A stretch of 54,921 nucleotides of DNA, from assembly GCA_034667685.1 (NCBI GenBank), contig JAXDQU010000028.1, forward strand, positions 1 to 54,921. The letters run 5' to 3'. Source of the stretch: Thermoplasmata archaeon (GTDB lineage: Archaea; Thermoplasmatota; SW-10-69-26; JACQPN01; JAJPHT01). A program made the position numbers and the translations under genes. Positions 10,737-54,355 of the stretch are shown in pieces. Numbering within the stretch: position 1 is the stretch's first letter; every line of letters starts with the position of its first letter. A model generated the notes under the pieces. The model was not told where the DNA came from and did no database searches. It saw only the letters and a program-made list of their open reading frames with translations.

Positions 10737-11186
10737 CTAGCCCGAGCGTGGCAGGCGAGCCGGCAGCGCCTTCCGCGCGGCGTCGACCCGCGCGAAGCCC
10801 GCGTGAGCGGGGTTCAACAGGACGTTCCAGCCCGGCACGAGGCTGCTGGGCACGCGGAGCGCGACGCCCCGGCCCGAGGCGAGCCAGGCGTCGCCGAGCG
10901 CGCGCGTGGCCGGATCGTGCACGGCGGCGTCCCAGCCGGGCGCGAGCCGCTTCGGGTCGAGGTCCTCGACGAGCGCGTCGGGGACGTGCGCCTCCACGAG
11001 CCGGAAGCCGGCAAGCTCGTCGAGCGTCGCGTGCACCATCGTCTCCAGCACCGCGAGCGCCGCATGCTCCGCCGCGTAGACGACGGGCTTGCCCTTCGTG
11101 TGCCAGCGGCCCGAGGCCTTCAGCCCTCCTTCACCGTTCCACGCGTGCGGGACGTGGCGCTCGTGCGTGAAGCGGTAGAGGCGCAC
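10737..11186 (-). CDS. RES-domain toxin (type II TA)
   Basis: GEGGLKASGRWHTKGKPVVYAAE, LAVLE, LRVPSSLV, NVLLNPAH. Confidence 0.92.
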   Translation of the reverse strand: MRLYRFTHERHVPHAWNGEGGLKASGRWHTKGKPVVYAAEHAALAVLETMVHATLDELAGFRLVEAHVPDALVEDLDPKRLAPGWDAAVHDPATRALGDAWLASGRGVALRVPSSLVPGWNVLLNPAHAGFARVDAARKALPARLPRSG

Positions 11187-11599
11187 TAGAACACACCGTG
11201 CTCGACGCGCGAGAGCAGCTCGTTGACCTCCTCGGCGCCGAAGGCGGTCTCCGCGAGATCGACGGGCCGGTGCCCTTCGAGCGCGGGCTGCGCGCGCTCC
11301 ATCCAGGCCTTGGCGTGGGCCGGGCCGCCGAAGATCGCCTCCGCGTGCGAGAAGAGCAACGCCAGCCGCGCGACGCGCTCGGACTCGCCCGCGCTCAGCT
11401 TGCCCTCGCGCTTGCGGCGGGCCCAGGTGGTCGGGGCGATGCCCGCCGTCCGAAGCAGGTCCGCCTCGGTGAATCCCGTGTGCCGGAGGAAGCGCCGGAC
11501 CGCGGCGACGGTGAGGCCCGCCTTCACCTTGCGGTCGATCTCCAAGCGCGACTTGGAGCCGAGGCCCAGCGCGTCCGGGAACCGCGCAGCTTCCACCAT
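11186..11599 (-). CDS. Xre/MbcA/ParS-like antitoxin
   Basis: HTH plus LSAGESERVARL...AKAWMERAQPALEGHRPVDL...LLSRVEHGVF. Start 11599 or 11611. Confidence 0.92.
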   Translation of the reverse strand: MVEAARFPDALGLGSKSRLEIDRKVKAGLTVAAVRRFLRHTGFTEADLLRTAGIAPTTWARRKREGKLSAGESERVARLALLFSHAEAIFGGPAHAKAWMERAQPALEGHRPVDLAETAFGAEEVNELLSRVEHGVF

Positions 11600-11630
11600 A
11601 TGGTCATTCATGACCTACCATCTGGCATAA
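11595..11630. promoter_or_regulatory. Putative TA operator and promoter
   Basis: Palindrome ACCATATGGT (11595) and near-copy ACCATCTGGC (11617); TTTATG on the minus strand at about 11625-11631. Confidence 0.5.
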
Positions 11631-47532: not shown

Positions 47533-47976
47533 TCACGCGCCAGGCGGGTCGCGCACGGGCCTGACGTCGATCACGGCGCCATCGAGGTTGACCGGCGCCC
47601 GGAACCCGCCCTCGCGCCACGCGCGCCCGATCTCGCGCAGCAGCGTCAGCGTGGCGAACGGGATCAGGTCGAGGCCGGGCACGAGGTCCACGCCCGCGAA
47701 GAGGAGCGAGTAGCTCGTCTGGCCCGTGATGCCCATGAGGAACGCCGCTTCGAGGACGAACGCGATCGCCATCGTGAACGGCCCGCCCAGGATGTCGAGC
47801 GGCGAGTCCACGAGATCGAGGAAGAGCGCGACGGGCAGCAGGCCGATCAGGCCCACGGGCACGCGCCCCTGGCGGATCGCGGCGACGCGCGCGACGAGGT
47901 CGGCAAGCTGGCCCACGCCGGGGATTTTCGCCACGAGGCCGCGGCGCTTGTCGTTGCGGGAGACGGTGCGTGTCAA
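47533..47976 (-). CDS. Hypothetical membrane protein
   Basis: Hydrophobic hairpins, GVDLVPGLDLIPFATL. Start uncertain (47934 or 47976). Confidence 0.7.
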   Translation of the reverse strand: MTRTVSRNDKRRGLVAKIPGVGQLADLVARVAAIRQGRVPVGLIGLLPVALFLDLVDSPLDILGGPFTMAIAFVLEAAFLMGITGQTSYSLLFAGVDLVPGLDLIPFATLTLLREIGRAWREGGFRAPVNLDGAVIDVRPVRDPPGA

Positions 47977-48098
47977 GGCGGGCGGCCTTTTCCCGCCACG
48001 TGGATAAGGGCGCCGGCAGGCCGGCTGATCGGACGCTAACACAAGTTTCCTCCACCAAAACGATTTGACCGCTGGCTGTTACCTCCCTCGGGGAGATC

Positions 48099-48791
48099 AT
48101 GGACTCGGGGGAGACCGTGCAGCAGGATGAGCTTCGGCGCACGCTGGAGGCGCTCTCCAGCCCAACGAGGCTTTGGCTTCTCGCGCGACTCGCGACGCCC
48201 GGCTTCGTCACCGGCCTGGCGAACGAGCTGGGCGTCAGCCGCCAAGCCACGCAAAAACACCTGGACGCGCTCACGGGGGCCGGGCTCGTGCAGGGGCGCC
48301 TGGCGTGGCGCGGGACCGTGCGCGCCGTGGAGTACGTCGCGAGCCCCGCGGGGATCTTCGCCTTCCGGGAGACGCTCCACGGGCTGACGGGGGAGGCCAA
48401 CACCCTCGCGTTCCCGCTGACGCCCACCCGCCCTTCCTCGCCTTCGGGCTTCGATGCGCACGGCGTCGGCCCCGGCCTCCTGCTGGTGCACGGCGACGTG
48501 CCTGGGCGCTGGTACCCGCTGGAGGGGCGCTCCGAGTGGATCGTCGGGCGCGCGGCCCAGCAGCACGTCTGCCTCGCGTACGATCCCTTCGCGAGCGCGC
48601 AGCACGCGCTGCTCCGGCGCGGCCCGGAGGGGTGGCGCATCGCGGACCTGCGCAGCCGGAACGGCACGCGCGTGAACCTCCGTCCCCTGCCGCCGGGCGG
48701 CGTGCATCCGCTCCGGCAGGGCGACCTGATCACGGTGGGCCGCAGCCACCTCATCTTCCGGGAGGGATCGTCGTCGCCTCCGCCATCGTGA
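48099..48791 (+). CDS. ArsR-type HTH plus FHA domain regulator
   Basis: LSSPTRLWLL...SRQATQKHLDAL..AGLV; FHA GR...DPFASAQHA...DLRSRNGT. Confidence 0.92.
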   Translation: MDSGETVQQDELRRTLEALSSPTRLWLLARLATPGFVTGLANELGVSRQATQKHLDALTGAGLVQGRLAWRGTVRAVEYVASPAGIFAFRETLHGLTGEANTLAFPLTPTRPSSPSGFDAHGVGPGLLLVHGDVPGRWYPLEGRSEWIVGRAAQQHVCLAYDPFASAQHALLRRGPEGWRIADLRSRNGTRVNLRPLPPGGVHPLRQGDLITVGRSHLIFREGSSSPPPS

Positions 48792-50782
48792 CGTTGAGCG
48801 GCGCCGCGAACGCGCTCCTGGGGGCGTTCCTCCTGGCGGTGGCGGGGGTCGTCGCGCGCCGCGGCACGGACCGGCGGACGCGCTGGCCCCTCGCGGCCTA
48901 CCTGGCGCTCGTGGGCGCGAACTACCTCATGGACGGCCTGCGCATCTCCGTCGTGGACGCCGGCGTTCCGGGATGGTCCCAGGCCCTCGGCCCGTTCGTC
49001 GAGGGCCATTACGCACCGCGCATCCCGCTCCTCTTCGACCCGCTCGCGCTGCTCCTCTTCGCCCTCATGACGTGGCGCCCCCGCGTCTCGCCGGGCCTCG
49101 TGGCGGCGGCCGCCCTGCCCGCGCTGGCGATCGGCGTCGCGGTCATGCTCGTGCTGCCGGCCCCGACCATCCATGCCCCGCTCTGGGACGCCTTCCTCGC
49201 CGAGCTCGTGCTCTACTACGCGTTGGCCTTCGCGCTCCTCGCGCGCACCTACCTCGCCGCCCGCAGCGCGGCCGAGCGCGACCGGCTCGGCACGCTGCTC
49301 GTGGGGTTCGGCATCGTGCTCGTGCCGCGCTTCGCGCTCCTGCACCTCGACATCGGGCTGGGCACGTACATTCCCTTCCCGCCGGGATTTCCTTCCCTGG
49401 TCACGGTCGACCTGAGCGCGCTCGTCGTCGCGTTCGCGCTCGTCGCGATCCTCCTGCTGCGGCATGCCAGCCCCGAGGCGCGCCCGCACGTGGAGCGCAC
49501 GACGATCGAGATGGGCTGGATGCTCGTCGTCGTGGCGCTGGCGTGGGCGCTCTTCGACTTCCTGCACGACGCGATCACGCTGACGTTCGGGCTGCTCTAC
49601 TCGATCCGCTGGTTCGTCTTCGGCGGGTTCCTCGCCTACGGCGGCCGCAGCGAGGGATTCCTGGGCCTGCCGGGCCGCCCCACGGCGAGGCTGCGCGCGC
49701 TCTTCACCGCGCTGCTCGCGGCGTCGGTCCTCGTCGAGCTCGTCGCCGTCGCGCAGGCGCTCCCCGGCCTGGCGCCCAGCGTCCGCCTGCTCGACGTCCT
49801 GGCGATCGCGGGCTTCGGCCTCCAGGTCTACGCGGTGCTGCGGCTCGCGCGCCCCCGCAACGCCGCCGAGGCGTCCTGGCGACGCGCCCAGATCTACCGC
49901 GCGCAGGTCCAGTTGGGCGCCTCGGAGGAGGACCTCGCCACCCTCCAGGAGCGGCTGGGCCTCTCGGCGCGCGAGGCCGGCGAGATCCGGCGCGCCGTGG
50001 CGCTGGAGCGCGACCGGGCCGCGCCGGCGCCCCACGGCGCGCTCGATCACGGCGCCATGCTCGCGGAGCGTTACGAGGTGGGCGCGCTCCTGGGCGCTGG
50101 GTCGTTCGGCCTGGTCCACGAGGCGCGCGACCGGCTCACCGGCGAGCGCGTCGTGCTCAAGGAGCTCAACCTGCGCTGGCGCGCCGACGCCGAGGCGCTC
50201 GGGCGGTTCCGCCGCGAGATCGAGACGGCGCTGCGCGTCGAGCACCCGAACCTCGTCGCCTTCCGCGCGCTGGAGAGCGCGGGCGACGCGAGCGTCCTCG
50301 TCCTGGCCCACGTCGAGGGGGAGACGCTCGCGGCGCGCCTCGCGCGCGGTCCGCTGACGCCCGCCGAGTCGGCGCAGGTCGCGCGCGACGTGCTCGCGGG
50401 CCTCTCCGTGCTCCACCGCCACGGCATCGTCCACCGCGACGTGAAGCCCGAGAACGTGATGCTCCAGCCCGACGGCCGCGCCGTGCTGCTCGACTTCGGC
50501 TGCGCGACGGACCCCGTCTCTTCGGGCGCGACGCAGGCGGCGCTCCAGCCGGGCACGCCCGAGTACATGAGCCCGGAGCAGGCGCGCGGCGAGGCCGTCT
50601 CGCCCGCGAGCGATCTCTACGCCGTGGGCGTGGTGCTCTGGGAGGCGCTCAGCGGCGCCCGCCCGCCGGGCCGCGCTCCTTCCTCCCCGTGGCGCGTCAC
50701 CCTGCTGCGCGCCCTCGACCCGGACCCCGCCCTGCGTTGGCCCGACGCCGAAGCGTTCCGCGCGGCGCTGCCCGTGGCGTGA
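48788..50782 (+). CDS. Multi-pass membrane Hanks-type Ser/Thr protein kinase
   Basis: About 11 hydrophobic segments, then GAGSFG, VVLKE, HRDVKPEN, DFG, GTPEYMSPE, SDLYAVG; GTGA overlap with the FHA gene. Confidence 0.92.
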   Translation: MTLSGAANALLGAFLLAVAGVVARRGTDRRTRWPLAAYLALVGANYLMDGLRISVVDAGVPGWSQALGPFVEGHYAPRIPLLFDPLALLLFALMTWRPRVSPGLVAAAALPALAIGVAVMLVLPAPTIHAPLWDAFLAELVLYYALAFALLARTYLAARSAAERDRLGTLLVGFGIVLVPRFALLHLDIGLGTYIPFPPGFPSLVTVDLSALVVAFALVAILLLRHASPEARPHVERTTIEMGWMLVVVALAWALFDFLHDAITLTFGLLYSIRWFVFGGFLAYGGRSEGFLGLPGRPTARLRALFTALLAASVLVELVAVAQALPGLAPSVRLLDVLAIAGFGLQVYAVLRLARPRNAAEASWRRAQIYRAQVQLGASEEDLATLQERLGLSAREAGEIRRAVALERDRAAPAPHGALDHGAMLAERYEVGALLGAGSFGLVHEARDRLTGERVVLKELNLRWRADAEALGRFRREIETALRVEHPNLVAFRALESAGDASVLVLAHVEGETLAARLARGPLTPAESAQVARDVLAGLSVLHRHGIVHRDVKPENVMLQPDGRAVLLDFGCATDPVSSGATQAALQPGTPEYMSPEQARGEAVSPASDLYAVGVVLWEALSGARPPGRAPSSPWRVTLLRALDPDPALRWPDAEAFRAALPVA

Positions 50783-50872
50783 GCCCTCCCTGACGCGTCC
50801 CGCAGAGGGCCGGATGGCTCAATGTCCGCTGTCCGAATCCTTATGCCCCTCAGCCGACGAAGGGGAAGGTTG

Positions 50873-51385
50873 GTGGTCCGCGTGGAGCCCAGCGATCGTG
50901 TTCGTCAATTCATCTCGCAGACCATGAGCCCCGAGTCCGTCCGCATCGCCGAAGCGCTGCTTTCGCGCAAGGAGGCGACCGACAGCGAGCTTGCCGAGGA
51001 GCTTGGCGAGAAGCCTTCCCACATCCGCAAGGTGCTCTACGACCTCTACGAGGCGCGCATCGCGGAGTACCACAAGGAGAAGGACAAGGAGACCGGCTGG
51101 CTCACCTTCTACTGGCAGATCAATCCCCAGCACGCCAGCGCGCACATCCTCGACAAGGCGCGCAAGGACCTCCAGCAGCTCACCAAGGCGCTGGAGTACG
51201 AGGAGACCCACGAGTTCTTCGTCTGTCCCCAGGGCGCCGAGCGCTTCGACTTCGCCCGCGCCACCGAGTCGGACTTCCACTGCCCCGAGCACGGCGCGAT
51301 CCTCCAGCAGCACGACAACCGCCGCGAGCTCGACCAGCTCCGCGAGCGCGTGGAAGCGCTCCGGCGCGAATCGACCGCGAGCTAG
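50873..51385 (+). CDS. tfe: Archaeal transcription factor E (TFE alpha)
   Basis: TDSELAEELG...IRKVLYDLYE, KDKETGWLTFYW, FFVCP...FHCPEHG. Start 50870-50882. Confidence 0.93.
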   Translation: MVRVEPSDRVRQFISQTMSPESVRIAEALLSRKEATDSELAEELGEKPSHIRKVLYDLYEARIAEYHKEKDKETGWLTFYWQINPQHASAHILDKARKDLQQLTKALEYEETHEFFVCPQGAERFDFARATESDFHCPEHGAILQQHDNRRELDQLRERVEALRRESTAS

Positions 51386-52123: not shown

Positions 52124-53434
52124 CTACCTCCACGTCGTCGCCGCGCTCGTGTACGCGACGCCGCCCACGGTGGCGGTGAACGTCACCTGCGCGCCGCTCG
52201 CGACGTGCGTGCTGAGGGCCCACGTGCCCCACGAGGTGGCGCGCAGCGCGATGGGCGCTCCGCCGTCGATGGTCGCGCTCACCGCGCTGGGCGAGCCGCT
52301 GACCTTGACCTCGACCCACCAGGTGTTGACGTTGGGGCTCACGGCGAACGTGGGCGCGTTGGCGGTCGGGATCGGAGCCGGAGCTGGAGCCGGCGCGGGT
52401 GGGGCGGCGCCGAGCCACGCGTAGGTCGGGCTCGCGACGGCCGCGCCGTTGACGATGGCGGTGAAGCTCACCTGGCTTCCGGCGGGCGCGTGGACGCTCG
52501 CGGCCCACGTGCCCCAGCTCTCGTGCGTGAGCGGGACGGGCGCGCCGCCGTTCACGATCGCGTTGACCGCGCTCGGGCCGCCCGAAACGCTCACCTCGAT
52601 CCACCATGCGTTCACGTTCGGGGAGAGCGTGAACGTCGTTGGCGAGGGCGAGGGAAGAGGCGACGGCGCGGGGGCGGGCGGGGGCGTCGTCGTCCCGCCG
52701 CTCGCGGGCCACGTGTAGTCGTTGAGCACCGCGGGCTTGTAGACCGCGACGTACTTGTCGTAGAGGCAGAGGTAGTCGCAGTTGTTCGGGTCGTACTTCT
52801 GGTACTCGCCCTTGTTCCAGTGGAATGCCACGGCGCGGAGCACCTGCTCCGTCGTGAAGCTGGGGTACGTCTTCTGGATCACGAGGAAATCGGGCAGGAC
52901 CTCCTCGGTGACGAAGCGGTCCAGGTTCTGCTGCGGGTCGAAGGGGTTGGAGAGCGGCGTGACGGGGCGAGGCGGCGCGATGCTGCCGTAGATGCCCTTG
53001 CCGAGCATCGTGGGCGCGCTGCCCGAGTTGCCCGGGTACGTCATGCCCTCGTGCGTCCAGCCCGTGAGCTGCGTCAGGCCGCAGCCGTGGGGCAGGTGGT
53101 CGCTCGTGGGCCAGAAGGAGGAGAGGGGCTTGTTCCAACCTCCCGCGCCGTCGTTGTAGTTGCAGAACGTGGCGCTGAACGTGGACTCCCGGTGCTCCAC
53201 CGAGTAGAGGAACCATCGCAACGTCTTGGCGTCGAGGCCGGGGACGGCGTTGGCGTAGGCCTGCGCGGTGGTGAGGGTCGCGGTCTGGACCGCGGCGTTG
53301 GTCAGTTGAGGCGGCTGGTACGTCGTCGCGGCCTGGGCGCTGGGCGTCACGAGGACGGCCAGGCAAGAAGCGAGCAGCAGGCTGCCCGCCACCCAAGCGA
53401 AGGACGACTGTTGGCGCGTCTTGAGGCGTGCCAT
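52124..53434 (-). CDS. Secreted lysozyme-like (SLT/GH23-like) protein with two expansin-like C-terminal repeats
   Basis: Signal ending AQA; RESTF, GLTQL, FDPQQNL, HWNKG; Pro linkers; 2x NVNxWW..V.VSG...SWGTW...QVxFTA. Confidence 0.75.
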   Translation of the reverse strand: MARLKTRQQSSFAWVAGSLLLASCLAVLVTPSAQAATTYQPPQLTNAAVQTATLTTAQAYANAVPGLDAKTLRWFLYSVEHRESTFSATFCNYNDGAGGWNKPLSSFWPTSDHLPHGCGLTQLTGWTHEGMTYPGNSGSAPTMLGKGIYGSIAPPRPVTPLSNPFDPQQNLDRFVTEEVLPDFLVIQKTYPSFTTEQVLRAVAFHWNKGEYQKYDPNNCDYLCLYDKYVAVYKPAVLNDYTWPASGGTTTPPPAPAPSPLPSPSPTTFTLSPNVNAWWIEVSVSGGPSAVNAIVNGGAPVPLTHESWGTWAASVHAPAGSQVSFTAIVNGAAVASPTYAWLGAAPPAPAPAPAPIPTANAPTFAVSPNVNTWWVEVKVSGSPSAVSATIDGGAPIALRATSWGTWALSTHVASGAQVTFTATVGGVAYTSAATTWR

Positions 53435-53602
53435 GGGGTCCGCTCGACTCCAAGCGCTTGGTCAAGCAGGCATCCGCCAGTCCGCCTGTCCGCCAAGTCC
53501 GCGCAAGCGACGAAGCGCGCCCGCACGGAGACGGGATCGCCCCCAACATGCCAGCGATCGAAGCCTTGCGCCGCGGCGCCCTCCCGCCCGCGGAGAGCTC
53601 CC

Positions 53603-54355
53603 ATGGCCAAGTGCCCCGTCGATTCTGCGTCCACCGCGTTCGTCCCGCCCGAGGCCGTCTTCGACAAGCGCGCGGGAAACAAGATCGTCGTGACGAAGGA
53701 CGGACCCTACGTCGTGACGGGCGAGGTCCCCCTGCGCGTGCAGACCATCACGCCCAACGCAGAGGGCTTCTCGTGGGACTGGGTGAAGGGCCGGGCCTTC
53801 GACGTGGGGAGCAGGTACGCGCTCTGCCGCTGCGGGCTCTCGGGCGCCAAGCCCTTCTGCGACGGCAGCCACACGAAGGCGCGCTTCGACGGCACGGAGC
53901 GCGCGACGCGCCGGCCCTACGCGCGGCAGGCCGAGACGATCCGCGGGCCGCAGTTGGACCTGGAAGACGCCGAGTCGCTCTGCGCCTTCGCCCGGTTCTG
54001 CGACCCGGCCGGCAAGATCTGGCGCCTCGCCGCCGAGGGCACGACGCCGGAGGCGCGCGCGTTGGCGATCCGCGAGGCGAACCACTGCCCCGCGGGCCGG
54101 CTCGTCGTGCTCGACAAGGCGACGCACAAGCCCTTCGAGGAACCGCGCCCCCAGGAGATCGGCGTCGTCGAGGACCCCGCGCTGGGCGTGAGCGGCCCGC
54201 TCTGGGTGCAGGGCGGCATCCCCATCGAGAGCGCGGACGGCAAGCGCTACGAGGTGCGCAACCGCGTCACGCTGTGCCGCTGCGGCGCCTCGGCCAACAT
54301 GCCCTTCTGCAACGGGAGCCACGCGACGGTCCAGTTTCAGGATGGGATCGGCTAA
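53603..54355 (+). CDS. CDGSH iron-sulfur protein (two CDGSH plus central Cys domain)
   Basis: LCRCGLSGAKPFCDGSH, CAFARFC...CPAG, LCRCGASANMPFCNGSH. Confidence 0.92.
   Translation: MAKCPVDSASTAFVPPEAVFDKRAGNKIVVTKDGPYVVTGEVPLRVQTITPNAEGFSWDWVKGRAFDVGSRYALCRCGLSGAKPFCDGSHTKARFDGTERATRRPYARQAETIRGPQLDLEDAESLCAFARFCDPAGKIWRLAAEGTTPEARALAIREANHCPAGRLVVLDKATHKPFEEPRPQEIGVVEDPALGVSGPLWVQGGIPIESADGKRYEVRNRVTLCRCGASANMPFCNGSHATVQFQDGIG

Follow-up and report, generated by a model that had tools for sequence, protein, structure and literature searches.

The locus at positions 48099-50782 of a 54,921-nt contig from a Thermoplasmata archaeon, analyzed here over its whole length (the window), raises the question of whether a polytopic membrane Ser/Thr kinase and the FHA-containing regulator encoded against it form a dedicated signaling pair, and how such a pair would carry a signal from the membrane to DNA. 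The features of the locus are as follows, the two genes being called H and K.

48043..48098 (no strand): spacer of 56 bp between a divergent ORF for a 169-aa membrane protein (47533-48042, minus strand) and gene H
48099..48791 (+): gene H, 230 aa, a regulator with an ArsR-like winged helix and an FHA domain
48105..48386 (+): winged helix-turn-helix domain of H, residues 3-96, delimited by model secondary structure, conservation and PDB matches
48426..48428 (+): codon of T110 of H, an invariant Thr in an otherwise variable linker and a candidate phospho-acceptor
48474..48761 (+): FHA domain of H, residues 126-221, with G150, R151, S166 and N188
48788..48791 (+): GTGA overlap of 4 bases, read from the sequence, in which the K start GTG (48788-48790) lies over the H stop TGA (48789-48791)
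48788..50782 (+): gene K, 664 aa, a polytopic membrane Ser/Thr kinase
48788..49849 (+): 11-helix membrane module of K, residues 1-354, from AlphaFold2
49862..50020 (+): three-helix juxtamembrane element of K, residues 359-411, cytosolic and conserved, from AlphaFold2
50060..50779 (+): Hanks-type kinase domain of K, about residues 425-664 (Pkinase E 4.3e-41)

The original prediction of translationally coupled genes agrees with the GTGA overlap, GTG 48788 being the earliest plausible start in a long ORF that spans 48173-50782; in the nearest paralogous pair (contig C95), the stop codon and the ATG abut. The promoter of the pair is presumably located in the 56-bp spacer, which contains no inverted repeat, the sole repeat found (47952-48000) falling within the upstream ORF. 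A promoter and terminator scan of the locus, of a bacterial type not built for archaea, found nothing. The host is archaeal, with TFIIE-alpha/TFE, Sec61-beta, family-B polymerase and TrmB genes in the window. There, the pair is surrounded by housekeeping genes, which encode TFE, a glycosylase and an ABC transporter, and a tblastn search for a third conserved gene with five neighbor proteins gave no match in the 1.5-kb flanks of seven loci encoding relatives of the K membrane module. The sequencing runs listed for the locus are five soil-metagenome DNA runs, of which one may be the source, with no RNA runs among them.

The kinase that had been described as intact and set behind a large polytopic membrane domain is so in every catalytic position. 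Pfam PF00069 (Pkinase) scores 141.5 bits (cut-off 31.7) over positions 634-831 of the long ORF, which correspond to residues 429-626 of K. Hanks kinases are recognized by a Gly-rich loop, the VAIK Lys, the alpha-C Glu, the HRD Asp, an Asn, the DFG Asp and the APE Glu, and K has the full set in GAGSFG, K458, E477, H549-R-D551, N556, D569-F-G and P596-E597. Across 69 kinase sequences, K458, H549, D551, K553, D569, P596 and E597 are invariant, and the activation-loop Thr column and T590 nearly so. The closest solved sequence to this domain is Mycobacterium tuberculosis PknB (E 6.6e-40). The juxtamembrane element is modeled as helices 359-375, 380-390 and 394-411 at a pLDDT of about 90-97, with the consensus RRLExYRAxLE...LGxxxxE (alignments A4 and A6) and nearly invariant columns 365, 383 and 387, and it also terminates the kinase-less relatives of the membrane module, which are about 430 aa long and of which two are encoded in this genome (contig C106, 146492-147772; contig C7, 4531-5865).

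Of the membrane module, the original prediction had counted about 11 transmembrane helices and proposed topology prediction and a Foldseek search. AlphaFold2 (pLDDT 88.8, pTM 0.85) gives 11 long helices within residues 3-354, at 3-25, 29-58, 78-96, 102-122, 130-156, 161-183, 204-226, 232-257, 260-285, 300-324 and 330-354, and hydropathy gives 9-11 segments. With an N-out/C-in topology, the inner loops contain 18 Lys or Arg residues and the outer loops 2, each set comprising 88 residues. The outer loops are 20 residues or shorter, and thus any sensing must take place in or at the membrane. R181, R274 and W275 are invariant in 131 sequences, and D84, L88, Y144 and F278 are nearly so. The membrane part had no Pfam match at E values up to 10, and Foldseek against the PDB found nothing at an E value of 0.001 or below. 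Among 59 relatives, four pass the cut-off of HisKA_7TM (PF16927, 28.6 bits), namely P0039 (43.3), P0033 (36.1), P0042 (35.9) and P0083 (33.1), with matches that span the first ~190 residues. An hhalign comparison of the family profile with 14 bona fide HisKA_7TM domains of the phylum gave a weak match (E 0.0027, probability 11%) over 148 collinear columns. The best 50 rows from VIA-align are all GPCRs or GPCR-like 7TM proteins, aligned over about 230 residues at an rmsd of 4-5 Å with Z values of 12.5-10.7, which lie within the tool's noise band for helical bundles. As leads only, an ESM Atlas feature search gave a best score of 0.88, where the tool asks 0.9, to a Thermoplasmatota cluster of ~437-aa proteins, and one cluster from the same search (top score 0.88, likewise under 0.9) is 14% HisKA_7TM. 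The module is thus weakly linked to HisKA_7TM, with no clear solved fold, and by analogy may sense a signal.

The regulator likewise has the predicted composition, an ArsR-like helix-turn-helix fused to an FHA domain with conserved GR, SxxH and NGT. Pfam HTH_20 matches residues 19-64 (E 3.8e-8, 33.6 bits against a cut-off of 27), and FHA (PF00498) matches residues 147-214 (E 1.3e-14, 54.8 bits against 20.7), whereas HTH_5/ArsR, at 21.2 bits, falls slightly below its cut-off of 22. The AlphaFold2 model of H has a mean pLDDT of 93.0, with 76-81 in the linker, and its pTM of 0.81 indicates that the model defines how the two domains are arranged. The N-terminal domain matches ArsR-family regulators in the PDB (2oqg, E 1.6e-8; 2p4w, E 6.2e-7), and its probable recognition helix is formed by residues 48-60, in which, across 57 sequences, R48 and H54 never vary and Q49 rarely does, and positions 50-53 differ among the H paralogues. 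H is predicted to bind DNA. We rejected H as a metal sensor of the ArsR/SmtB type. Such sensors bind metal at clusters of Cys or His residues in helix alpha3 or alpha5; H has no Cys in residues 1-157, and NCBIfam NF033788 reaches 35.8 bits where its cut-off is 55. H therefore has the ArsR/SmtB fold and its helix-turn-helix and should not be classed as a metal sensor. In FHA domains, phosphothreonine is contacted by the Arg of GR, the Ser of SxxH and the Asn of NG. These motifs are G150-R151, S166-x-x-H169 and N188-G-T in H, and the pocket residues G150, R151, S166 and N188 are invariant in the 57 sequences; the SxxH His is replaced in some paralogues by Q, N or S. The FHA model superimposes on that of GarA (7rj3_C) over 101 columns at an rmsd of 1.1 Å (Foldseek E 5.1e-9, TM on target 0.90). 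T110, located 40 residues ahead of G150, is kept in 11 of 11 paralogues and in 57 of 57 H-family sequences, suggesting that it may be the phospho-acceptor site.

Whether the two genes belong together is answered by their relatives, and a survey of paralogous pairs had been proposed for this purpose. H and K are each present in the genome as 11 paralogues, and 10 of the 11 H genes adjoin a K gene. Under a chance model in which H is placed at random and falls within 3.5 kb of one of the 11 K genes with p = 0.024, adjacency of 10 or more of the 11 has P = 7.8e-16. Three of the 10 pairs have H before K, one has K before H and six are convergent, five of these six with 3′ ends that overlap by 11-96 nt. 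The H on contig C17 and the K on contig C85 stand alone, with no partner gene less than 5 kb away, and the eleventh K is split over contigs C88 and C109, with its membrane module on C88. All 10 K proteins whose N-terminal part lies on the examined contig have 8-12 hydrophobic segments before the kinase domain, and all eight Pfam FHA matches in the genome fall inside H genes. In phmmer searches, the membrane part of K finds one of 10 paralogues and the kinase domain finds all of them. A phosphatase search limited to PP2C, PP2C_2 and SpoIIE found none in this genome, which is rated 99% complete.

The same arrangement recurs beyond this genome. H was found in 21 of 21 genomes of the class and in 1 of 130 other genomes of the phylum. 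A kinase domain lies within 3.5 kb of at least 93 of the 140 H matches in the class, which is a lower bound, many contigs being short; the other 47 are without a nearby kinase among the matches listed. These pairs comprise 44 that are convergent, 21 with K before H, 20 with H before K and eight that are divergent. For the second order of the class, at least 24 of 51 H genes have a nearby kinase, and the best H locus is adjoined by a kinase domain in 17 of 20 genomes. Some H-family matches in relatives lie in open frames of 600-1200 aa, which we considered as fusions and rejected, as these are stop-poor frames of DNA with 70% G+C, and the matches within them always span ~230 residues. A locus search with a 4-sequence alignment returned a single locus, L051. 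The distance matrices of H and of the kinase domain for 27 pairs are correlated with a Mantel r of 0.755, a value reached by 0 of 5000 permutations, and nearest neighbors are concordant in 15 of the 27. Because related pairs are not independent, this covariation speaks for co-inheritance, not for contact. Together, the adjacency and the correlated distances support, at the level of sequence comparison, a conserved unit of H and K that is inherited and diversifies together. The pairing is thus conserved, and the single pair first noticed belongs to a larger family of pairs, expanded in number and restricted to the class.

Known systems resemble this family in part. PknH-EmbR of M. tuberculosis combines a Ser/Thr kinase with an FHA-containing transcription regulator and shares with H-K the genetic linkage of a Hanks kinase to a regulator, predicted to bind DNA in the case of H, with a C-terminal FHA domain of the phosphothreonine-reading kind. 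EmbR consists of a SARP-type winged helix and a bacterial transcriptional activation (BTA) domain in addition to its FHA domain, which matches that of H at E 6.4e-7 by sequence and 1.4e-7 by fold (structures 2fez and 2ff4). The alignment is confined to this FHA domain (TM on query 0.40), and H carries in Pfam only an HTH_20-type domain and FHA. PknH is a single-pass protein with an extracellular sensor domain, in contrast to K with its 11 helices and lack of any extracellular domain, and the mycobacterial pair is single, whereas H-K forms a family of at least 10 pairs per genome. As judged from these comparisons, H-K would function like the PknH-EmbR pair, yet it is not a member of that type. 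For both partners, the nearest solved relatives come from the PknB/PknG-GarA (OdhI) system, PknB at E 6.6e-40 for K and GarA at 1.6e-12 for H by sequence. In PDB 6i2p, titled as the PknB kinase domain with its substrate GarA, chain A matches K and chain D matches H, and the titles of other entries that match H (2kfu, 2kb3 and 6hc1) describe phosphorylated forms or complexes of an FHA domain with a phosphopeptide. GarA and OdhI have an ETTS acceptor motif whose phosphothreonine is bound by their own FHA domain, and H resembles them in having a conserved threonine ahead of its FHA domain. They differ from H in having no DNA-binding domain, acting as inhibitors of metabolic enzymes, and PknB differs from K in its PASTA domains and single helix.

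Among archaea, the part of PMC5007285 used here describes Sulfolobales systems (ST1565-ST0829 and ArnC/ArnD-ArnA/ArnB) in which a Hanks kinase phosphorylates or binds an FHA protein that acts at a promoter. In ArnA and ST0829, according to the same part of that paper, a zinc finger takes the place of the winged helix, and their partner is of the vWA type; ArnA and ArnB share an operon, and kinase-regulator gene pairing is not mentioned there (PMC5007285). These systems belong to a different phylum and are without paralogue expansion, and the ArnA FHA domain (5a8i) matches H weakly by sequence (E 0.0025), in the FHA core. On the membrane side, K resembles HisKA_7TM histidine kinases and other prokaryotic 7TM receptors in having a polytopic N-terminal module without an extracellular domain, followed by a cytoplasmic kinase, as far as the part of PMC5847659 used here describes them. 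K differs from them in its Ser/Thr kinase output, in place of HisKA/HATPase, and in having 11 helices versus seven. The original prediction had called the pair an archaeal two-component analogue with an architecture not known as characterized. Kinase and FHA-regulator pairing is already a known kind, and full-text literature searches returned no description of this 11-helix version. The term two-component analogue holds as a description of one-to-one paired logic; it does not hold in the sense of a replacement for two-component systems, since 26 receiver-domain matches also occur in the genome. In contrast to His-Asp systems, H-K is predicted to use Ser/Thr phosphorylation read by an FHA domain, and HisKA, HATPase_c and receiver domains are absent from the Pfam matches of K and H at E values up to 0.01.

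We favor, with a probability of roughly 60%, a dedicated one-to-one pair in which K is a membrane receptor kinase and H an FHA winged-helix output protein that switches its DNA binding. The 11-helix module, in which invariant R181, R274 and W275 and near-invariant D84 and Y144 are buried, would answer a membrane-associated or small external signal, and the three-helix cytosolic element would relay the change to the PknB-like kinase domain, which would autophosphorylate its activation-loop threonine. The FHA domain of H would dock on a phosphothreonine of K, K would phosphorylate H, most likely at T110 in the linker, and the FHA domain would then bind phosphorylated T110, either within its own molecule or in a partner, in the manner of GarA/OdhI. 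This binding would in turn alter DNA binding by the winged helix; both the phosphorylation of H by K and the direction of its effect on DNA binding are what we infer. Prediction of a complex between residues 356-664 of K and H, both entered as alignments, scored 0.00 in two runs without controls, which argues neither for nor against binding. Several observations count against the proposal: one H and one K are unpaired here and 47 of 140 H matches in relatives have no kinase nearby among the matches listed, the context of T110 is not of the ETTS type found in GarA/OdhI, the absence of a PP2C-type phosphatase leaves the reset step without a candidate of that class, and the invariance of R48 and H54 and near-invariance of Q49 are unexpected if each paralogue reads its own operator.

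The last of these would be accommodated if H, instead of being a transcription factor, acted on the kinase as an adaptor or regulator, with an FHA domain that binds phosphorylated K and keeps H at the membrane or tunes the kinase, and a winged helix used for protein contacts or oligomerization. The conserved helix residues argue against paralogue-specific operators, and the solved FHA matches GarA, OdhI and FhaA/TB39.8 are, by their PDB titles, adaptors or enzyme regulators, not DNA binders. We nevertheless regard this role as unlikely, given that HTH_20 scores above its cut-off, that 2oqg and 2p4w are ArsR-family DNA binders, that helix positions 50-53 do vary among paralogues, and that the equal numbers of 11 and 11 and the co-diversification suit a dedicated output protein. 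A comparable doubt attaches to the idea that the membrane module is a polytopic anchor or a transport-like or lipid-handling unit, on which the kinase reports, which it regulates, or behind which it is constitutive. The existence of kinase-less forms, two of them in this genome, means that the module has a function without the kinase. Buried R181, R274 and D84 resemble the sites at which membrane enzymes and carriers bind substrates or ions, and Foldseek offers no clear solved fold. Against such a module stand the four of 59 relatives that pass the threshold of a histidine-kinase sensor module and the 50 of 50 listed VIA-align rows that are GPCR or GPCR-like, though inside the noise band. The membrane sequence also diverges far more than the kinase domain among paralogues, as expected of a module that defines the input, and so we rate the non-sensor role as improbable.

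Far less probable still is a conflict or anti-virus function, in which the membrane kinase would detect infection and the FHA protein execute the response. The kinase domain matches the PADLOC models PD-T4-6 (E 2.4e-62) and mad6 (E 6.5e-55), and the family is multi-copy, fast-diverging and restricted to its lineage. However, the PADLOC matches are all confined to the generic kinase domain (residues about 420-630), with none on the membrane module, and H matches only the winged helix of Csa3 (E 1.1e-6). In an NCBIfam scan of the pair, every score is under its cut-off, including MAD6 (134 bits against 460) and PglW (80.6 against 990), and the scan, like PADLOC, gives generic kinase, FHA and helix-turn-helix similarity only. 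The neighbors are housekeeping genes, moreover, and none of them is conserved. That the adjacency is meaningless, the two genes being unrelated and merely overlapping, we consider barely credible in view of the 10 of 11 H genes beside a K gene, the retention of the pair in four gene orders across 21 genomes and the Mantel correlation.

The family stands out in that partner assignment can be read from the genome, from 10 adjacent pairs here, at least 93 in 21 genomes, and their joint diversification. According to the part of PMC5007285 used here, what is known of archaeal Ser/Thr kinase signaling comes from a few Sulfolobales proteins, with most of its wiring still to be worked out. With partners legible in this way, three questions become directly testable: how an FHA regulator distinguishes its own kinase from ten paralogues, whether phosphothreonine-FHA binding can switch a winged-helix DNA binder, and what a polytopic, loop-less module with invariant buried arginines senses. 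Our broader proposal, which we advance tentatively and at less than even odds, is a second two-component-like system, with a wiring rule of its own, across a class of soil archaea (probably Thermoplasmatota), composed of 11-helix receptor kinases with a 7TM-like core and a buried Asp/Arg/Arg/Trp site, each matched to a winged-helix-FHA regulator in which T110 would provide a GarA-like intramolecular phospho-switch of DNA binding. Were this true, kinase/FHA-regulator specificity could for the first time be studied in a family of pairs, as it has been for histidine kinases and response regulators, and the membrane module would represent a new class of receptor. Besides having no clear solved fold, that module is rare, with 232 representatives among 1.84 billion proteins in an exhaustive profile search.

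Two adjacent forward-strand genes in the window encode an ArsR-like winged-helix regulator with an FHA domain (H) and a polytopic membrane Ser/Thr kinase (K), and the original prediction described the sequence correctly in all points checked: the genes are coupled through GTGA, the Hanks kinase is intact, and the regulator joins an HTH to an FHA domain.

48099-48791 (+), gene H, 230 residues
H residues 19-64, HTH_20 (Pfam E 3.8e-8, above the cut-off)
H residues 147-214, FHA (Pfam E 1.3e-14)
48788-48790 (+), GTG start of gene K, the earliest possible start in the downstream frame
48788-50782 (+), gene K, 664 residues from this GTG
K residues 429-626, Pkinase (Pfam E 4.3e-41)

The stop codon of H (TGA, 48789-48791) overlaps this GTG, and the canonical kinase residues of K are complete (GAGSFG, K458, E477, HRD/D551, N556, DFG/D569, APE/E597). 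The window has a G+C of ~71%, and its genes for TFIIE-alpha/TFE (50822-51385), Sec61-beta, family-B DNA polymerase and a TrmB regulator mark it as archaeal.

The polytopic domain of about 11 transmembrane segments that had been claimed for K is borne out by its predicted topology. By hydropathy, residues 1-355 contain 9-11 hydrophobic segments. An AlphaFold2 model of residues 1-420, built on a 131-sequence alignment (mean pLDDT 88.8, pTM 0.85), has 11 long helices within residues 3-354 and, after them, three helices on the cytosolic side (359-411). With the kinase placed in the cytoplasm, the N-terminus lies outside; in this topology the inner loops carry 18 Lys/Arg and the outer loops 2, each loop set comprising 88 residues. 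No outer loop exceeds 20 residues, and K thus lacks an extracellular domain. R181, R274 and W275 are invariant among 131 relatives and D84, L88, Y144 and F278 nearly so; judging from helix position, D84 would sit close to the outer end of helix 3 and R181 close to that of helix 6, and Y144, R274 and W275 probably lie mid-membrane.

The membrane module of K has no Pfam match even at E 10, and a word-indexed protein search with residues 1-400 returned just K itself. An exhaustive profile search of 1.84 billion proteins, queried with eight membrane modules from this genome and related ones, recovered 232 representatives with E-values of 0.001 or below. Among the 59 of the 150 listed matches that were scanned with Pfam, all 25 long relatives (617-830 aa) contain Pkinase, two of them also passing the HisKA_7TM cut-off; the 34 shorter ones comprise six with Pkinase, two passing HisKA_7TM, one with a weak DUF7546 match and 25 with nothing. 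The HisKA_7TM link, which covers the first ~190 residues, thus appears in 4/59. HisKA_7TM is a sensor module of histidine kinases (PMC5847659). When the family profile was compared with 14 bona fide domains of this type, all taken from the same phylum, the alignment was collinear but weak (E 0.0027, probability 11%); kinship of the K module to HisKA_7TM is possible but unproven. Foldseek matched no solved fold to the membrane model at E 0.001 or better, and the best 50 VIA-align rows are exclusively GPCR or GPCR-like 7TM entries, at Z scores (12.5-10.7) that unrelated helical bundles can reach. The module also occurs in kinase-less forms of ~430 residues, whose C-terminal end is the conserved cytosolic helical motif (RRLEVYEATLE...) by which module and kinase are joined in K. 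Of the 150 representatives listed, at least 18 have 410-446 aa and no Pfam domain, and P0051, P0072, P0112 and P0125 are further kinase-less relatives of ~430 aa beside two in the window's own genome (G000):

C106:146492-147772 (+), kinase-less module relative
C7:4531-5865 (+), kinase-less module relative

In the structural model of H (pLDDT 93.0, pTM 0.81), a winged helix (residues 3-96) is connected by a linker to an FHA sandwich (126-221). Its FHA domain can be superposed on GarA (TM 0.90, rmsd 1.1 A), OdhI, DgcB and EmbR, and no solved chain recovered by the structure search spans both domains (TM-score on the query at most 0.42). For the FHA part, the closest solved sequences are an Arabidopsis FHA domain (1uht) and then GarA/OdhI; for the HTH part, they are ArsR-family regulators. 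G150, R151, S166 and N188, which make up the phosphothreonine pocket, are invariant in 57 family members, and so are three winged-helix residues, R24, R48 and H54. Unexpectedly, the linker threonine T110 is also invariant (57/57), although the linker otherwise varies. Within the probable recognition helix, invariant R48 and H54 and nearly invariant Q49 accompany positions 50-53, which vary among the paralogues. As judged from its sequence, H is ArsR-like in fold and is not a metal sensor; residues 1-157 contain no cysteine, and the NCBIfam metalloregulator cut-off is missed. Family members carry generic source names, such as "FHA domain-containing protein [Thermoplasmatota archaeon]".

H belongs to a set of 11 full-length paralogues that occur alongside 11 kinases in the genome of the window (3.48 Mb, 99% complete), and all eight Pfam FHA matches of this genome fall inside H genes. 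Gene models place ten H/K pairs side by side, and 10/11 adjacencies would arise under random placement with P = 7.8e-16.

Adjacent H/K pairs in the window's genome, by contig (C28 carries the pair in the window)
C28, H then K, 4-base overlap
C95, H then K, abutting
C108, H then K, 77-nt gap
C54, K then H, ATGA overlap
C25, convergent, 3' ends overlap by 17 nt
C97, convergent, 3' ends overlap by 89 nt
C122, convergent, 3' ends overlap by 96 nt
C31, convergent, 3' ends overlap by 11 nt
C12, convergent, 3' ends overlap by 87 nt
C109, convergent, 151-nt gap

Because the 3' coding ends of five convergent pairs overlap by 11-96 nt, their transcripts would be mutually antisense over the stop regions. 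All ten kinases whose N-terminal part lies on the examined contig have 8-12 hydrophobic segments ahead of the kinase domain, and the membrane-module profile picks up eight of these ten plus a fragment on C88. This fragment belongs to a kinase with its membrane module on C88 (1-1563, -) and its kinase domain on C109 (2-553, +); the contig ends share a 15-residue peptide, and this overlap indicates that the kinase is whole and split by an assembly gap. The H on C17 and the K on C85 are orphans with no partner near either, and given 11 of each, one may guess that the two might work together in trans. PP2C, PP2C_2 and SpoIIE phosphatases were not found in the genome despite its 11 Hanks kinases. 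Since it has 26 receiver-domain matches, the H/K pairs add to two-component signaling rather than replace it.

The H family is present in all 21 genomes of the class to which the window's organism belongs (1-15 copies each, by H profile) and in 0/20 from other classes; when more of the phylum was sampled, 22 of 151 genomes had it, these same 21 and one of 130 others. Each class genome has 2-21 Pkinase matches, vs 0-1 in those of other classes (21 and 20 genomes, respectively). The one genome outside the class that has the H family, G078, belongs to another class of the phylum and has eight matches (e.g., G078:C45:13377-14033); misplacement of the genome, a second lineage carrying the family, or a transfer could account for it. 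One locus, L051, comes from a record labeled as a Proteobacteria MAG, the other named family members being labeled Thermoplasmatota; the label may be the submitter's default.

The pairing on which the original prediction was built extends to the paralogous pairs and is conserved in relatives. When one H locus, the best, was taken per genome from 20 genomes, 15 had a kinase domain within 1.5 kb; longer flanks of the remaining five revealed a divergent kinase in two and none in three, one of these on a 4-kb contig. Across the 21 class genomes, at least 93/140 H matches have a listed kinase domain no more than 3.5 kb away; the true count may be higher, as the listing lacks 24 kinase matches and many contigs are only a few kb long. 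Among the matches listed, the convergent arrangement is commonest (44/93), followed by K then H (21), H then K (20) and divergent (8), and the class's second order has a lower adjacent fraction (24/51). In tblastn searches with five neighbor proteins at seven loci with K-module relatives, no further gene was conserved beside the pair. Distance matrices of the kinase domain and of H are correlated across the 27 pairs in which both genes were sufficiently complete (Mantel r 0.755, reached by 0/5000 permutations); nearest neighbors agree in 15/27, and gene order tracks the clades. This covariation shows that pairs duplicate and persist as units; it is not proof of physical contact, since related pairs are not independent.

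Kinase and FHA-regulator pairs are already a known kind, of which PknH-EmbR is an example. Archaeal examples are ST1565-ST0829 and ArnC-ArnA/B (PMC5007285). In contrast to the kinases of known pairs, which have one helix and an outer domain, K has an 11-helix module, and H has an ArsR-like HTH where known regulators have a SARP or zinc finger. Unlike known pairs, H/K is organized as a class-restricted family with at least 10 co-diversifying pairs per genome. The original prediction held that this architecture was not known as characterized, and in agreement, a full-text search of open-access papers and bioRxiv found no description of it.

To the observed architecture, conservation, topology and genomic coupling of the pair we add a mechanism whose every phosphorylation step, like DNA binding by H and the signal, we infer. 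We favor, with a probability of roughly 0.6, a general model in which a sensing membrane kinase phosphorylates H and an FHA-phosphothreonine switch alters the winged helix. A signal would be sensed by the membrane module and relayed through the cytosolic three-helix element, and K would autophosphorylate on its activation loop, where a nearly invariant Thr column corresponds to T582, beside alignment position 581. The FHA domain of H would then dock, H would be phosphorylated at T110, and FHA-phosphothreonine binding would rearrange the winged helix. The assignment of T110 as the switch is tentative and falls somewhat short of probable. The scheme is drawn by analogy with the closest solved relatives of K and H, PknB and GarA, which according to PDB titles form a solved kinase-substrate complex (6i2p); other titles describe GarA, OdhI and DgcB structures in which an FHA domain holds a phosphorylated threonine.

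Several other genes in the window were noted. Divergent from H is a hydrophobic 169-aa ORF (47533-48042, -; GC3 0.90) that has no Pfam/NCBIfam match and, by tblastn, no second copy in the genome and none in seven K-module loci. A 436-aa protein (52124-53434, -) outside any Pfam family carries a signal-like hydrophobic stretch at its N-terminus and contains three internal repeats (…NAWWIEVSVSGGPSAVNAIVNGGAP… and similar) between PAPAP linkers. An Xre/MbcA/ParS-type antitoxin (11186-11614, -) combines an Xre-like HTH with a toxin-binding C-terminal domain (E 3e-16). Translation of ~53600-54355 (+) contains two CxC...C(D/N)GSH motifs, which presumably mark putative CDGSH-type iron-sulfur domains.
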